Positions 20,863-48,597 of a stretch of 64,000 nucleotides of DNA are shown piece by piece. This DNA is from a virus (Duplodnaviria; Caudoviricetes), in IMG/VR virus record IMGVR_UViG_3300031414_000005; one strand, written 5' to 3'. The translations under genes and the position numbers were made by a program. Each line of letters begins with the position of its first letter. Position 1 is the first letter of the stretch. The notes beneath the pieces are model-generated. The model did not search any database and was not told where the DNA came from. It worked only from the letters and a program-made list of their open reading frames with translations.

Positions 20863-21651
20863 ATGTCAAAGATTATTGCGATTACCAAAGCACAAACCGC
20901 CACGGCTGCGATTCAGCATTTTGGCCATAACAACGTCAAGGAAGTGGATCTCTCTAACTTCCCGCAGTGCAAGCTTCCATCCATTGCAGTTAAGTACATC
21001 CAGCGCCAGGTCAAAGAAGGTATCTCGTACATCGTGGTGCCTCAGGATGTGGCGTTACTGGCGGCGTTGGACGAAGCGGAAGTCGAATACACCAAGACCA
21101 CCGAAAACGACTCCTTGTTAAAGTTAATCCATCGCATTGAAGTACCGGAGATCGATCTCGCAGGTGCAATCCCTTCCCCCGCTATTTACCCTGAACTCAC
21201 TGGCGGCATGGTGGTGTATGTGGACGACATTCGTGATCCACGGCGTTTTCTGAAACCCGAGCAATGCAAAGATGTGTGGTGGGCGAAACACTGGTTCGCT
21301 GCCAAGAACTTCTTGTTCGAACATGAAGCGGAAATCGAAGTCCTGCACCTCGATCATTACCTGGGTAATGAAGAAGGCCTGTTGGTCGAACACATCGTGG
21401 ACGGGGAGCTGGTTGACACCAGTACACATATCGAGAACACCCGTGGGCACACGCGTGACCGCCGCCACACCGGTGCCGACTTGTTCCACATGGTCGTCTC
21501 GTACCGTCAACGGGGACGGATGTTCGCTAACCTGAAGTGTATCTACCTACACTCCAACGCTCGTGAGATCACGGCTAAACTCATGAACGAATACCAGGAT
21601 GAACTGGGGAAACTGGGGATCGCGTTAATCCAAAACCCGCAGGAGTGGTGA
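20863..21651 (+). CDS. protein with a C-terminal cyclic-phosphate-processing receiver (cREC)-like domain
   Basis: YVDDIRDP, LHLDHYLG, TGADL, IYLHSN motifs. Confidence 0.7.
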   Translation: MSKIIAITKAQTATAAIQHFGHNNVKEVDLSNFPQCKLPSIAVKYIQRQVKEGISYIVVPQDVALLAALDEAEVEYTKTTENDSLLKLIHRIEVPEIDLAGAIPSPAIYPELTGGMVVYVDDIRDPRRFLKPEQCKDVWWAKHWFAAKNFLFEHEAEIEVLHLDHYLGNEEGLLVEHIVDGELVDTSTHIENTRGHTRDRRHTGADLFHMVVSYRQRGRMFANLKCIYLHSNAREITAKLMNEYQDELGKLGIALIQNPQEW

Positions 21652-37232: not shown

Positions 37233-38174
37233 ATGAAATCTTTGATCAAATTCTTTAAGCATCTTCTGGGTATGAACACCCCTGCTCCAACGGTTCGTCA
37301 CGTCCACGCCCCAACCACCCCAGTGGAGTCGGAGAAACCCGGTGACAAGTTCCTGCGTAAAGCGCAAGTGGCTACACGGCGGGCACTGGAGAATGCACCT
37401 GAACAACTTGCTTTAGCGGCCGGTATCTACGGGGGCGAAGCCAGCCTGGAAGAGGTGGACGAATACCTCAGCCGGTTCACTACGCAAGAGTTCCGTCAGT
37501 TGTCTGAAGAATACCAGACCCGTGATGACGGGGTTACCATGGAACTGACGTTTGATGTGCGGGAAGGTAACCTGACGGAGAAGCAAAGCTTTATTGTGAT
37601 GCGTACCGGTGGGATGCCGATTCCTAAGACGATCTTTGATGACGTCGCACGGGAAGCAGAAGAAGCTTTCCTGAAATCGCTGCGTGTACCGAGTGAACCG
37701 GCTGCGCCAACCGTACCTGCCACCGGTGCAGTCCCGCGTGAAGGCGAACCTGTGCTGATCCCGGTGGAACCGACCAAAGTCGATGAGCTGGATGACGATG
37801 CCCCGGAGATCAGTCCGGAAGATGCGCAGGTCATCGACACCGTACAACCTGAACCCACACTCGCCATTGCTGAACAGGTAAGTTTTGCTGAGCCTGAACC
37901 GGTATTGGATCCGGCGCTCAAAGCAGAAGCCGAGCGTTACATGTCCGACAAGCGTTACACCCTGGTGAAGCACCTCGCCCAGGTCGACGATGTGTTGTAC
38001 GTGCGTCCGGCAACCAGTGACACGTTGCAGTGGATCCCGGCGGTGTACTTCCCGAAAAGTCTGGTACGTGGGTTGGAAACCCTGGAACATTACGAAGAGC
38101 GTGTGCGTGTGCGCAAAGCCGGAAAGAAACGTCTGGGTGCACGTGAACGTAAACGCTTGGCTCAGGCGAAATAA
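37233..38174 (+). CDS. hypothetical protein with an acidic Pro-rich middle and a basic C-terminus
   Basis: 313-aa ORF ending RVRVRKAGKKRLGARERKRLAQAK. Confidence 0.7.
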   Translation: MKSLIKFFKHLLGMNTPAPTVRHVHAPTTPVESEKPGDKFLRKAQVATRRALENAPEQLALAAGIYGGEASLEEVDEYLSRFTTQEFRQLSEEYQTRDDGVTMELTFDVREGNLTEKQSFIVMRTGGMPIPKTIFDDVAREAEEAFLKSLRVPSEPAAPTVPATGAVPREGEPVLIPVEPTKVDELDDDAPEISPEDAQVIDTVQPEPTLAIAEQVSFAEPEPVLDPALKAEAERYMSDKRYTLVKHLAQVDDVLYVRPATSDTLQWIPAVYFPKSLVRGLETLEHYEERVRVRKAGKKRLGARERKRLAQAK

Positions 38175-43235: not shown

Positions 43236-43901
43236 ATGGCAAACCTGTATTTTCGTTACAGCACCATGAATGCGGGTAAATCCGCGCACCTGATTCAGGC
43301 GGCGTTTAATTACCTGGAACAAAACATGAGGCCGTTGATTGGTAAATCGTCGACGGACACCCGGATACTGAATAAACCAGCAGGTGTCACCGGGGTATAC
43401 GAAGCCATCGGTCAGATCGAGTCGCGGGGTGGTGGTAATATCGCGTGTGGTTTGTTTTCCCCGACACAAGACCTTTATCAGTGGGTGCTGGACCACGGTG
43501 GGAATTTCTTACCCGGTGTGAGCATGGTCAATTGCGTACTGATCGATGAAGCCCAGTTCCTGACTCCTGAGCAAGTGGACCAGTTATGTAAAGTGGTGGA
43601 CGTCCTGAATATCCCGGTGCTCTGCTACGGTTTGCGTACGGACTTCCAGGGTAAGTTGTTTCCTGGCTCTGCGGCGTTATTAGCCAATGCAGAGAAACTC
43701 TCGGAAATAAAGACCCTTTGTAACTGCGGCTCCAAAGCCACGCATGTCGTGCGGGTTGACAAAGACGGTCAAGTATTACAGGACGGTGCACAGGTGGTGA
43801 TTGGTAATGACAATTACATCAGTGTGTGTCGCCGACATTTTAACGCAGCATTGGCAGGAACGTACAAACCATGTCCACTGAAAAAGATAACACTGGATTG
43901 A
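43236..43901 (+). CDS. tdk: thymidine kinase
   Basis: YSTMNAGKS, LIDEAQF, YGLRTDF, C.CG..A, GND.Y.SVCRRH. Confidence 0.95.
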   Translation: MANLYFRYSTMNAGKSAHLIQAAFNYLEQNMRPLIGKSSTDTRILNKPAGVTGVYEAIGQIESRGGGNIACGLFSPTQDLYQWVLDHGGNFLPGVSMVNCVLIDEAQFLTPEQVDQLCKVVDVLNIPVLCYGLRTDFQGKLFPGSAALLANAEKLSEIKTLCNCGSKATHVVRVDKDGQVLQDGAQVVIGNDNYISVCRRHFNAALAGTYKPCPLKKITLD

Positions 43902-44257
43902 ACCCCTGTGTTGAAGTCGTTGACAAATCGGCGGATAACACCCTGACCCTGCTGGATGGTTGGTTGACGGTCACCAGTACCCCGCACTTACCGATGACGC
44001 TGTCCGATCAGCAGCAGGAGGTACTGGGTCTGTTAATGAACTGCACCGATCTCCACCCCAAAGTGCGGGTGAAAGAAGTGAAACCCGAGCCGGTGATCGA
44101 TGAAACAGAGCGTAAAGCCCAAGCGGCACGTTCTCTGGTGTATGAACGTTACTTACGTGGCAAACCCAAACTGACCGATGTGCAGAAAGGGTTACGGAAG
44201 AAAAAGTCGGACGTTAAAAGTAAACGCCGTAAGGCTATCTTGAAGAGGCACAAATAA
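43871..44257 (+). CDS. hypothetical protein with a basic C-terminal tag
   Basis: Ends KSKRRKAILKRHK. Confidence 0.6.
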   Translation: MSTEKDNTGLNPCVEVVDKSADNTLTLLDGWLTVTSTPHLPMTLSDQQQEVLGLLMNCTDLHPKVRVKEVKPEPVIDETERKAQAARSLVYERYLRGKPKLTDVQKGLRKKKSDVKSKRRKAILKRHK

Positions 44258-44461
44258 ATGCATGAGGATGATGAAATCATCGGTATCGACACCGGTAAAG
44301 AACTTACCATGGTGAGTAAAACCAACATAGTGACAGATTGGCATCACGCTTTCTCTTACGAGCACCGCCAGGCCTACGGTAAGTCTGCTACACCGAAAGT
44401 GCAGAACAAAACCAAGGTGAAAGCCAAGCGTCGCAAAACGGTGTTGAAAAAACACAAGTGA
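44258..44461 (+). CDS. small protein with a basic C-terminal tag
   Basis: Ends KAKRRKTVLKKHK. Confidence 0.65.
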   Translation: MHEDDEIIGIDTGKELTMVSKTNIVTDWHHAFSYEHRQAYGKSATPKVQNKTKVKAKRRKTVLKKHK

Positions 44462-44468
44462 GGTTAAC

Positions 44469-45053
44469 ATGTCAAAAGAATCGAAACCTATTTTCCTGCC
44501 TAAATTAACCACGGTGTACGACATGGACAAAGTAGCTGAAGTGGAACGTGAGATCATGCTTTCGTTAACAGAAAAACGGGGTTTTGAAAAACCCGTGATG
44601 AACATTGTTAAAGGTCGTGATCCCAGCAAGTTACACGAGTTCCACCTGATACGCCCGTTGAACGGTCCTGACTTCCATTTGCGTTGGGCTCAAGAACTGC
44701 TTCGTAACGGTGGTAAGGTGATGTGCATGGATACCGAATTGGGTTTGTCAGATGAAAGTCTTGCCCGGATCAAACGCGCTGCTGACAAACTCGAAATCGA
44801 CGTGGCCAAGCCCAAACGCATCGACCATGTTGGACCGATGACGATCCCGAAATGGGTTGACTCGTTTCTTGACATGACCCCACCGGTAGTAAAAGAACAC
44901 CCAACTGGCGAACCCGGTCCGATGGAACAGTCTGAACCAAAGGAATGGAAGCGAGTGCGGGGTCAGTGGCAGTGGGTGACCAAAAACAAAACGGGTAAAC
45001 ACACCCTGGGCAAAGCGGTCAAGCGTAAACACCGTCACCGTAAGGGGAGGTGA
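44469..45053 (+). CDS. hypothetical protein with a basic C-terminal tag
   Basis: GAGG RBS; ends GKHTLGKAVKRKHRHRKGR. Confidence 0.65.
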   Translation: MSKESKPIFLPKLTTVYDMDKVAEVEREIMLSLTEKRGFEKPVMNIVKGRDPSKLHEFHLIRPLNGPDFHLRWAQELLRNGGKVMCMDTELGLSDESLARIKRAADKLEIDVAKPKRIDHVGPMTIPKWVDSFLDMTPPVVKEHPTGEPGPMEQSEPKEWKRVRGQWQWVTKNKTGKHTLGKAVKRKHRHRKGR

Positions 45054-45054
45054 T

Positions 45055-45243
45055 ATGGAAGATACCCCACGTCTTGCAGCTTGGTACGAAGCGATGCGCG
45101 AGTTTACGACCACCCCTGCTGAAACCATCGATAAGAAACGATGGAAAGAAATCGTGCCGGATTTGTTCAGCCCCAGGAAAGGGGGGAAACATGCCAAAGG
45201 TAAGGCTACGAAACGTAAACGTCGCCACCGGAAAGGAAAGTAA
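45055..45243 (+). CDS. small protein with a basic C-terminal tag
   Basis: GGGAGG RBS; ends GKHAKGKATKRKRRHRKGK. Confidence 0.65.
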   Translation: MEDTPRLAAWYEAMREFTTTPAETIDKKRWKEIVPDLFSPRKGGKHAKGKATKRKRRHRKGK

Positions 45244-45245
45244 TT

Positions 45246-45410
45246 ATGGCAAAGCGTAAAGCCAGCGTTATTCCAATTAATGCTGTGCGACTAATCAAAC
45301 CCCCGATCTCACGATTGGGCGGTCCGTGTGATTTCGACAGGGATATTGATATTCTCGGTCGGATTGTGGTCTATACCGATGGTCAATGGTGGGGTTGGTA
45401 TCCAAAATGA
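45246..45410 (+). CDS. 54-aa hypothetical protein; absent from the ORF track
   Basis: MAKRKASVIPINAVRL...GQWWGWYPK; fills the gap; stop overlaps the next ATG. Confidence 0.55.
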   Translation: MAKRKASVIPINAVRLIKPPISRLGGPCDFDRDIDILGRIVVYTDGQWWGWYPK

Positions 45411-45628
45411 ACGAAACAATTTCGATTGCTATATTGTCACTGTTCGGTGTTATCACACTGATTGGTATGTTGTACAGCTCCGCAACACTCTGGACACATG
45501 ACATCAACCAAGAGTCAAAAGCGGTAATGAAAGTCGCCCGGCGTCACTCGTCATACTGGATGTTACTCGCACTGGTTGTCGCGTTGCTGATGGGATGCCA
45601 CATTTATTATTTTGGACAACTCAAATGA
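45407..45628 (+). CDS. small two-TM membrane protein
   Basis: Two hydrophobic segments flanking a basic loop. Confidence 0.6.
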   Translation: MNETISIAILSLFGVITLIGMLYSSATLWTHDINQESKAVMKVARRHSSYWMLLALVVALLMGCHIYYFGQLK

Positions 45629-45840
45629 ATCACCTTCAATTGTTTGGCGGAATCGGGATCGGTGTTCTTATCGTCCTGATTCTTTATACCCTGTACCTGG
45701 TGTTTTCCTATATGGCGAACCATGCTGCCGGTGATCGCTTCACCGCGCGTAAAATCAAGCGCCGTATCAACTGGACCGCCATCGCGTTGGTGGTTGTCAT
45801 GATTGCTGTACTCACCCCTACTTTTATCTGGCCGAGGTAA
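45625..45840 (+). CDS. small two-TM membrane protein
   Basis: Two hydrophobic segments flanking RKIKRR. Confidence 0.6.
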   Translation: MNHLQLFGGIGIGVLIVLILYTLYLVFSYMANHAAGDRFTARKIKRRINWTAIALVVVMIAVLTPTFIWPR

Positions 45841-45845
45841 CTTAA

Positions 45846-46253
45846 ATGCCTGAACACTTCACGTTGCGTTCGCTGAACTCGTTGGATCACTATGTTCATT
45901 TACTGCGGGGTAATCGTCGTCGCGATACGGCGGTCATCGATCAGCGTGAGCTTGGATACCTGGCGTTGCGACTGTACGAAGATCACTTAATGGACCCCAT
46001 CCTGTTTACCCAGGCTGCGGTGAACATGGGTTGGACGTGCCATGTTTACAACGGGGTGCCACAAGTGCAAGGTCCAGGGTTCATTTATCGGTTGCGTGAC
46101 GGTGACAATGATCTGGTTGCTGCACTGTGTCGCTGGTCAGTGACCATCACTGACCTCGGGCGTAAACGTCCTTGGCGTGCACGCATCATGGCCTGGCAGT
46201 TCCGTTGCCGGATTTGGGCGAACGCTCAACGTTTTCGTCGGAGCCTGAAATGA
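45846..46253 (+). CDS. hypothetical protein
   Basis: GAGGT RBS. Confidence 0.6.
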   Translation: MPEHFTLRSLNSLDHYVHLLRGNRRRDTAVIDQRELGYLALRLYEDHLMDPILFTQAAVNMGWTCHVYNGVPQVQGPGFIYRLRDGDNDLVAALCRWSVTITDLGRKRPWRARIMAWQFRCRIWANAQRFRRSLK

Positions 46254-46696
46254 TCGGTCAATGGTTACATGACCTACTACAGATAGGTACACCGGGTGAA
46301 CGGGTGATGATGATCAACCGCCTCAAAAAGGAGGACTTGGTCGGCAAGCCGGTGCGGGGTGCATACACCTACACCAAACGAGGACGCACCCGTTACTGCC
46401 GTGAACTCCAGGCCGCTGCGAATGTGTCCCGCCTGCGCAAGGTGTATCGCTATGACATCCAGGTGCAGAACGTGCTGGAGTACGGCTTCCGCATTGTACT
46501 GAAACGTGACGGTAATGAACCGATCATTATTCGGGCTTATTACTGGCAGCAGTCTGGAATCAGTGCGCTGTTCAATCACCCCTATTTACTCGGTGATGGC
46601 GATGCAGAAATAGCCAGAGTAGAGAAACGCATCCGACGTATTAACGACTCTTTGAAGGAGAAAGCCAAGTGGAAGAAGAAAAAGGCAGCATCATAG
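46250..46696 (+). CDS. basic hypothetical protein
   Basis: GGAG RBS; ATGA coupling. Confidence 0.6.
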   Translation: MIGQWLHDLLQIGTPGERVMMINRLKKEDLVGKPVRGAYTYTKRGRTRYCRELQAAANVSRLRKVYRYDIQVQNVLEYGFRIVLKRDGNEPIIIRAYYWQQSGISALFNHPYLLGDGDAEIARVEKRIRRINDSLKEKAKWKKKKAAS

Positions 46697-46986
46697 TGTC
46701 ACACGACTTCAATCATCGCGAACCTTTTAGAAAGATGTACGAGATGAAAGTCCGGGAAGACGGGTACCAGGGTACGTACGACGAGTTCACCCGGGAAACG
46801 ATGGATCGCATCAACAACTGGGGTCGGGTTGACCGCACCCATGCAGAACGTCAACTGGACATGGTGAAAGGCCGTATCAAAGGTTCAAGTGAACGTTACT
46901 GGAACGACCGAAGCCATCCCGATCGTGCTGCGGTTAAAAAGAAAAAGAAACGCCGTAAGGCAGTCATGAAACAACACCGTCGTTAA
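46669..46986 (+). CDS. hypothetical protein with a basic C-terminal tag
   Basis: GTG start; ends KKKRRKAVMKQHRR. Confidence 0.6.
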   Translation: MEEEKGSIIVSHDFNHREPFRKMYEMKVREDGYQGTYDEFTRETMDRINNWGRVDRTHAERQLDMVKGRIKGSSERYWNDRSHPDRAAVKKKKKRRKAVMKQHRR

Positions 46987-46995
46987 GGGTGATTT

Positions 46996-47328
46996 ATGTT
47001 AGAGCGAATTCGTGCGTGGTTTACACCGACATTACCGGTCAGCGACACCGCGCTGCTTTCCTTATTGGAAGAGTACGGCATCCGCGCTGACATCACCCCG
47101 TCAGCACAACGGCTACGCGATTACACCCAAACCCAGCGCGAGGCGGTGAAAGACTGCCTCCGCACTGCGCTGGCCGAGCGGTTCCCGCTGCGGACGTGGT
47201 CCATCGCGTTGTTGCATGGTTATCTGGCGGTCGTTCCTGACCGCCATTTCAAAGAAGACGAACTGTATTACATTCTGTACTGGGATGTGGAGTCCCTGGC
47301 AGAAGCAATCCTGGCGATCAAGTATTAA
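46996..47328 (+). CDS. hypothetical protein
   Basis: ORF in operon. Confidence 0.6.
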   Translation: MLERIRAWFTPTLPVSDTALLSLLEEYGIRADITPSAQRLRDYTQTQREAVKDCLRTALAERFPLRTWSIALLHGYLAVVPDRHFKEDELYYILYWDVESLAEAILAIKY

Positions 47329-47338
47329 GGACCTTCCA

Positions 47339-47656
47339 ATGTCAGACGTGTTATTCCCCGAAATGAAGAAACTGATCACCAATATCCAACGGGTGGTCAC
47401 CAGCGATGAGCTCCCCACCGCACCGATGGAGAATCTGTGCGATATCATCAACAACTACGAGTACAGCAACAGCCTACGCCGTAGCCTGAAGCGGATTCGT
47501 AATACCGCCGGGGTGCATTTAACTGACCCCGTGACGGTGATGGCATTTAACACAGCATTAAAGGAACACGGGTTGACAGACACCTGGGCGACCTATCGTC
47601 CGACGGCGAATAATAACGGGGTGCTGCGGCTACCGAACGGGATGGTAACATGGTGA
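47339..47656 (+). CDS. hypothetical protein
   Basis: AAGGA RBS before MSDVLF. Confidence 0.6.
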   Translation: MSDVLFPEMKKLITNIQRVVTSDELPTAPMENLCDIINNYEYSNSLRRSLKRIRNTAGVHLTDPVTVMAFNTALKEHGLTDTWATYRPTANNNGVLRLPNGMVTW

Positions 47657-48571: not shown

Positions 48572-48597
48572 GAGGCCTCCTAACGGGGGCCTCTTTT
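48572..48597 (+). terminator. intrinsic terminator
   Basis: GAGGCCTCC-TAAC-GGGGGCCTC then TTTT. Confidence 0.8.

Follow-up and report, generated by a model that had tools for sequence, protein, structure and literature searches.

What would lead several small viral proteins with nothing else in common to end in the same basic peptide? The question is raised by a stretch of 64,000 nucleotides (hereafter the window) from a tailed virus (Duplodnaviria; Caudoviricetes; IMG/VR record IMGVR_UViG_3300031414_000005), which comes from a phyllosphere metagenome and has related strains in soil, fermentation and viral metagenomes. Three plus-strand genes of the window share the C-terminal end K-x-K-R-R-K-[AT]-[IV]-[LM]-K-x-H-[KR], preceded by a looser lysine-rich run. 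These are gene A (43871-44257, 128 amino acids, tail core KSKRRKAILKRHK at 44216-44254), gene B (44258-44461, 67 amino acids, tail core KAKRRKTVLKKHK at 44420-44458) and gene C (46669-46986, 105 amino acids, tail core KKKRRKAVMKQHRR at 46942-46983). Sequence comparison indicates that this tail is a homologous, transferable module of ~16-25 residues, placed at the extreme C-terminus of small dissimilar proteins. We tentatively suggest that it serves to dock these proteins on a nucleic acid.

The shared tail and the bodies that carry it

The preliminary description of this DNA had reported a shared basic C-terminal tag on A, B and C, and the open reading frames (ORFs) and their ends are exactly as it gave them. 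Among the ORFs of all six frames of the window, A, B and C have three of the four most lysine- and arginine-rich stretches of 20 terminal residues, and two genes that lie between them, D and E, are in the top eight. The last 22 residues carry a charge of +9 to +11, the bodies one of -4 to +3. Given the amino acid composition of the window, the chance expectation of such ends among ~100 genes is ~2e-11. A loosened form of the motif, written as a regular expression, has no further occurrence in any frame of the 64 kb, which is the part of this phage covered by the motif scan. The 14 nucleotides also described as common to A and C (starting at 44222 and 46948) are indeed identical, but this identity is not significant alone, as ~7.6 pairs of identical 14-mers are expected in 64 kb.

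The tail is found on other proteins as well. A degenerate DNA pattern that encodes K-x-KRRK-[AT]-[IV]-[LMI]-K-x-H has two matches in IMG/VR. Each of them is placed at the extreme end of a small ORF, and each ORF lies on a contig of jumbo size. One contig (G001) is 278.5 kb long with direct terminal repeats; the other (G002, IMGVR_UViG_3300011202_000010) is 341.6 kb long, AT-rich (33% G+C) and classed as a provirus. With a looser pattern, one tagged gene is found per contig, and the presence of three tagged genes is a peculiarity of the window's lineage. The same DNA pattern has 40 matches in 241 million metagenome records. Nineteen of the 40 are chance matches, since a stop codon interrupts the pattern. 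Four more that end 0-4 residues past the histidine (L015, L021, L039 and L041) were also judged to be chance matches, because they are very short stop-to-stop frames or lie on contigs without phage-like neighbours. The clean family members end one or two residues past the histidine and add a tagged protein of 54 amino acids (L027 and L034) as well as G001-type and G002-type variants. An exhaustive search of 1.84 billion representative proteins with a 30-column tail profile (E <= 1e-3) gave seven matches, each within one residue of the protein's last residue, and these clusters include three body types beyond A, B and C. The tail is thus exceedingly rare. A word-based search of 5.8 billion clusters recovered more G001-type proteins and an orthologue of C (P0012), all of which have the tail. 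Altogether, there are at least six body types, spread over at least two kinds of large mobile element: A, B, C, a family of 122-141 amino acids in a second chimallivirus lineage (that of G001), a protein of 61 amino acids in G002 and the 54-amino-acid protein on a short contig. That further body types in other large elements end in the tail supports the idea, put forward in the preliminary description, of a portable module on unrelated bodies.

When the family profiles of A, B and C are compared with each other (profile-profile comparison with hhalign), only the last 13-18 columns align. After removal of the last 16 residues, all 15 pairs among the six body families give P > 0.09, in alignments that are shallow (1-6 sequences each) and could miss very distant homology. 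Paralogy of the bodies had been named as a check on the portable-tag proposal, and hhalign detects no similarity outside the tails. The six body types could nevertheless be one family that diverged fast, with a tail that was inherited rather than grafted. This alternative concerns the origin of the tail and not its function, and it could partly hold together with the explanation that we favour below. In its favour, similarity would fade quickly at the rate at which the bodies of A and B change (see below), and the models available for C and the G001-type protein are both mostly helical. C and the G001-type gene are also similarly placed, each being followed by a gene for 110-134 amino acids and then by a gene whose product starts with M[ST]DVLFP. 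However, the comparisons of all 15 pairs give it no support, body lengths span 54 to 141 amino acids, and A and B have nothing in common beyond the tail despite being adjacent. The order of genes bears on the same question. A overlaps the 3' end of a thymidine kinase (TK) gene (43236-43901, plus strand), the conserved anchor 5' of A and B. On the related contig L055, a B-like protein of 63 amino acids (P0014, 850-1041) is encoded directly 3' of TK and gene A is missing, so A is a lineage-specific addition. On balance we consider a single diverged family unlikely, if still worth keeping in mind.

The first nine residues of P0014 are those of gene A of the related contig L002, since both genes overlap the end of TK. 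The two arginines of the tail core are always encoded by CGY and never by AGR, even in the element with 33% G+C (for example, at 44222-44227 in the window and in L005, 6337-6522). This codon usage hints at a common origin of the tail DNA, which possibly moved between elements, and it would also suit a tail inherited within one family.

Conservation of the motif in orthologues, another check named in the preliminary description, was found in the syntenic metagenomic relatives recovered with protein A. Both L003 (89% identical) and L002 (57-59% identical) keep all tails. We compared nonsynonymous (pN) and synonymous (pS) differences between the window and L002, taking the last 22 codons as the tail. 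For A, pN is 0.038 in the tail versus 0.32 in the body, for B 0.038 versus 0.34, and for C 0.096 versus 0.18. Tail pS (0.37-0.50) is nearly at the level of the bodies (0.59-0.67), and the body pN/pS of A and B is ~0.5; the tagged bodies thus evolve fast. In A and its 59%-identical orthologue, the last 38 residues are near-invariant, with the exchange of an adjacent K-R for R-K as the sole change, while the N-terminal half is only about one-third identical. The tail of C is also kept in the divergent orthologue P0012 (54% identity). Four further strains, on contigs from four studies, show one change in the tail of A, which is synonymous (GCT to GCA at 44236), and at least 21 variants in its body among those listed. 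In the tail of B, they have a threonine-to-alanine replacement at the position where the motif permits either residue.

At the level of codons, identical residues of eleven tails from the six body families agree at 98%, 100% and 56% of first, second and third positions, respectively. In the KRRK of A and B, the third base differs in every codon. The tail is kept in elements with 33% and 52% G+C that have different downstream genes. Selection therefore acts on the peptide and not on the DNA, since the first two codon positions are fixed while the third varies, tail pN is low, and a Shine-Dalgarno sequence would cover no more than the final two or three codons of A, D and E. These data also bear on the idea that the tail is a by-product of reused junction DNA, that is, of a ribosome-binding site, promoter or recombination site that happens to be read in frame. 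The tails do lie just 5' of the next start codon, and the K-R codons of A (AAG AGG) or the last three codons of D and E could be used as the next Shine-Dalgarno sequence. The core, however, lies 15-40 nucleotides 5' of the next start, its third positions are free, and it persists in front of different genes. As far as the sequences can tell, this explanation is largely refuted, and we give it hardly any credence.

Carrier elements and gene neighbourhoods

The phage of the window is an uncultured giant and chimallivirus-like. Its 431-amino-acid virion protein has ~40% identity to proteins of the Erwinia phages AH06, RAY and Deimos-Minion, matches phiKZ-type phages generally and scores to phrog_3337. 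G001 encodes a chimallin homologue (6e-16) with an adjoining beta subunit of the non-virion RNA polymerase (nvRNAP; 1e-76). In G002, searches with the phiKZ chimallin, the phiKZ nvRNAP beta subunit and the virion protein of the window gave no match, with the proviso that distant homologues could be missed, and Terminase_6N was not found. Near its tagged gene, G002 encodes a bacterial-type single-stranded DNA-binding protein (SSB), a PilV/shufflon-like protein with a tail-collar domain and an HNH endonuclease. G002 may be a huge phage, a phage-plasmid or plasmid-like element, or something else.

The tag was absent from the cultured chimalliviruses checked. Searches of 50,697 GenBank phage records by megablast and blastn of the region, and by tblastn of proteins A and C and of the tagged protein of G002, yielded no homologue, with matches to thymidine kinase and SSB alone. 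No useful relative was found in IMG/VR with A and TK. PHROGs, Pfam and NCBIfam returned nothing significant for whole proteins or tails.

A recurrent neighbour of the tagged genes is cRec (cRec_REC, PF20274). In the G001 lineage (G001, L067 and L068), the order is PhoH, tagged gene, a gene for 129 amino acids (on two of the three contigs) and cRec; in G002, the tagged gene is directly 3' of two cRec genes. G002 carries five cRec_REC genes. The domain was not found in AH06 or phiKZ, the two tag-less chimalliviruses checked. The window also encodes a cRec-domain protein (20863-21651, plus strand; 32.8 bits, over the cut-off). In the passages on cRec by Iyer et al. 2021 (PMC7824862), the domain is predicted to be a phosphoesterase for 2',3'-cyclic RNA ends or cyclic ADP-ribose and is linked to RNA ligases, RNA repair and NAD-centred conflict systems. 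The tagged genes adjoining cRec in G001, L067, L068 and G002 thus recall the jumbo-phage neighbourhoods described there. They differ in that those passages mention no partner with a polybasic tail, and in that the window's genes are far apart. Prediction of a complex between the cRec protein of G001 and the G001-type tagged protein gave a score of 0.00, which counts neither for nor against binding.

Directly 3' of C, gene X (46996-47328, plus strand, 110 amino acids) occupies the place that a gene for 128-134 amino acids has after the tagged gene in the G001 lineage; hhalign does not establish that the two are homologous (P = 0.08). Gene Y follows (47339-47656, plus strand, 105 amino acids). 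Its first eight residues, MSDVLFPE, are those at the start of the cRec protein of L068 (6381-6770), and the remainder is unrelated, so that it looks as if the body of this gene was replaced just past a conserved start. A strong terminator-like hairpin (48572-48593, plus strand, nine pairs, seven of them G-C) closes the tightly packed plus-strand run that holds the tagged genes.

Between B and C, genes D (44469-45053, plus strand, 194 amino acids, ending in GKHTLGKAVKRKHRHRKGR) and E (45055-45243, plus strand, 62 amino acids, ending in GGKHAKGKATKRKRRHRKGK) have a second type of tail, GKH-x-x-GK-[AT]-x-KRK-x-RHRKG-[KR]. This second tail is also kept in L002 and L003, and its pattern has no match in IMG/VR. 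The last three codons of both genes can double as the Shine-Dalgarno sequence of the next gene. Another basic end is found on a protein of 313 amino acids (37233-38174, ending in KKRLGARERKRLAQAK), which has no family match and whose end is kept in L002 and L003. A 54-amino-acid protein with a basic N-terminus (MAKRKAS, 45246-45410) matches part of a longer ORF of the chimallivirus G001 (L009, 3421-3900) at 50% identity, and its gene is among the few of the cluster shared with the G001 lineage.

The gene preceding C (46250-46696, 148 amino acids) contains a local hypervariable cassette. In three of four related strains, its body (46316-46655) is replaced by a sequence of the same length that is strongly diverged, while the flanks of this stretch stay 97-98% identical. 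This gene and C overlap by 28 nucleotides (46669-46696), which encode the lysine-rich end KWKKKKAAS of the former in one frame and the acidic start MEEEKGS of C in another.

Possible binding partners of the tail

The tail, if taken as a helix, is not amphipathic: its hydrophobic moment is 0.10-0.32 and its mean hydrophobicity lies between -0.8 and -1.0. AlphaFold2 predicts a helix over the tail in both proteins modelled, at residues 86-104 of C and 119-136 of the G001-type family (predicted local distance difference test, pLDDT, ~84-86), within whole models that are weak (pLDDT 65 and 57, respectively). Foldseek comparison of the C model with the PDB gave nothing below E = 3.9, and the ESM Atlas had no usable match for C.

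We tentatively propose that the tail is a portable dock for a conserved host polyanion. It would bind there stereospecifically and tether differing small effector bodies to a single site. As a whole, this reading is one that we favour with some doubt; that the tail docks on a nucleic acid of whichever kind is close to an open call. The near-invariance of the tail across elements with 33% and 52% G+C suggests a conserved target supplied by the host, its charge suggests a polyanion, and the fixed histidine and the small hydrophobic triplet suggest a defined site over bulk electrostatics. The recurrent position beside cRec genes would fit an RNA-centred role. A structured RNA (ribosome or tRNA) is judged more likely than DNA, and RNA or the ribosome as the actual target is a possibility that we regard as doubtful.

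The closest known parallel is provided by the lysine- and arginine-rich tails of SmpB, ArfB (YaeJ) and ArfA, which are ~20-30 residues long, disordered when free and helical in the mRNA channel of the 30S subunit (PMC4151336). The tail studied here is also extremely C-terminal, polybasic, predicted to be helical and found on unrelated bodies, and its tethering of effectors to one site would resemble what those tails do in the 30S mRNA channel. It differs in that homology to SmpB, ArfB or ArfA is not detected (Pfam, PDB at E <= 10 and a profile scan of Escherichia coli). Furthermore, the SmpB tail is rich in acidic residues and contains a key tryptophan, and the present bodies are tiny, with no function assigned. 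By analogy, the tail might be a docking helix of this kind that enters the 30S mRNA channel when vacant or occupies a different fixed site of the rRNA, a specific version that we think improbable but worth stating. Giant phages and large mobile elements would then park several small effectors on host ribosomes. The parked effectors would possibly act with cRec-type RNA-end processing, coping with or exploiting ribosomes stalled by host defences that cleave RNA.

Several points weigh against docking on nucleic acid. Tails that bind nucleic acid by charge alone usually drift in sequence, and the near-invariance seen here could equally indicate a protein partner. The tail profile had no match in the genome of E. 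coli K-12, and hhalign comparison of E. coli bS21 with the tail and with the C family gave a probability below 1%. Neither a single tail nor the profile retrieved a PDB chain (E <= 10), and the profile retrieved no Pfam or NCBIfam family either. In the window, 23 kb separate cRec from the tagged genes. Only one long ORF of E. coli K-12 ends in [IV]-[LMI]-K-x(1-2)-H-[KR]-stop (a pattern that its IUPAC letters relax slightly), namely SmpB (ending in ARIMKNAHR), but the likeness is ~7 residues long and the pattern was designed after the SmpB end had been seen, so that it is a lead only. Two ribosomal proteins were also considered as models that the tail might mimic. Mimicry of bS21 was rejected, with no support from hhalign, the E. 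coli genome profile scan or Pfam and NCBIfam. For bL35, the generic searches of Pfam, NCBIfam and the PDB gave no match, and no direct comparison with bL35 was made.

A protein partner of one kind would be a host AAA+ machine, notably ClpX, for which the tail could be a recognition signal like the C-motif 2 at the end of MuA (NRRKKAI). Such a signal would shorten the life of the effectors or let them occupy ClpX. The tag of MuA can be transferred to other proteins, and its degron is given in current work as CILEQNRRKKAI (PMC12723719). The tail core contains RRKA[IV][LM] and so has, like MuA, basic residues before A-I close to a free C-terminus, a likeness that is short and was found post hoc. 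The strict C-terminal position is typical of degrons, and a degron common to several phage effectors would be biologically sensible. In contrast to the MuA tag, the hydrophobic triplet of the present tail is not terminal but precedes K-x-H-[KR], with four or five basic residues and the invariant histidine following it. Thirteen near-invariant residues plus the lysine-rich run exceed the known needs of a degron, and the failure of the tail profile to match a PDB chain speaks against it too. We consider a ClpX-type signal improbable. Still less can be said for an address to a compartment built by the phage, be it the nucleus formed by chimallin, which the preliminary description had listed among the possible targets as the phage nucleus, or the vesicle of early infection. 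The core resembles the classical monopartite nuclear localisation signal of eukaryotes, and the window's phage and G001 are both chimallivirus-like by the markers described above. The tail is also present in G002, however, where the three marker searches found nothing, and it was not seen in the cultured chimalliviruses checked. According to a review (PMC12908238), chimallivirus cargo is imported through surface residues recognised by PicA and not by a terminal signal; a linear C-terminal tag as import signal would be a new mode of recognition. The phage-nucleus address is therefore very unlikely, and judging from its carriers the tag is not tied to a phage nucleus.

The membrane, another address proposed for the tail, fares no better. 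A polybasic or amphipathic helix could anchor proteins to anionic lipids, which would agree with the high positive charge of the tail and with the two small membrane-protein genes within the cluster (45386-45840). The moment and the hydrophobicity of the tail given above nonetheless contrast with 0.45 and 0.04 in a MinD-like control peptide, and the only hydrophobic residues, three small consecutive ones, do not form a single helix face. With a mean hydrophobicity of ~-0.9, a membrane anchor seems remote.

Known terminal peptides and biological meaning

Docking on a host nucleic acid by a terminal peptide, the reading that we favour, can be compared with other portable signals. The capsid-targeting sequence of T4 internal proteins and the cargo-loading peptides of encapsulins are short terminal addresses found on unrelated proteins of a single virus or compartment. 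The T4 sequence differs from the present tail in being N-terminal, not basic and cleaved off, and the encapsulin peptides in being hydrophobic or glycine-rich. An address to a virion or compartment is not indicated here, because the tail is also found in an element of another kind. The N proteins of lambdoid phages (lambda N and P22 N) recognise structured RNA with a short, basic, arginine-rich helix. A segment of P22 N (RRRKLAIER) resembles KRRKAILKR of the tail; the N segments differ in being N-terminal and arginine-rich, whereas the present tail is C-terminal and lysine-rich. Portable terminal peptides are thus a known kind of signal, to whose known members the present tail appears unrelated in sequence. 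None of the family libraries, solved structures and papers searched contains a description of the motif.

Genes of unassigned function offer few handles, and a short transferable peptide by which unrelated proteins reach a common place is one of the rare ones. Such a tail on fast-evolving small proteins is what one would expect of effectors in a conflict between host and virus. A single binding experiment with the peptide would place at least six families of dark phage proteins at their site of action. If its target is the ribosome or a defined RNA, the tail would represent a new viral way to address the translation apparatus, and would provide a compact, ready-made targeting peptide for Gram-negative bacteria.

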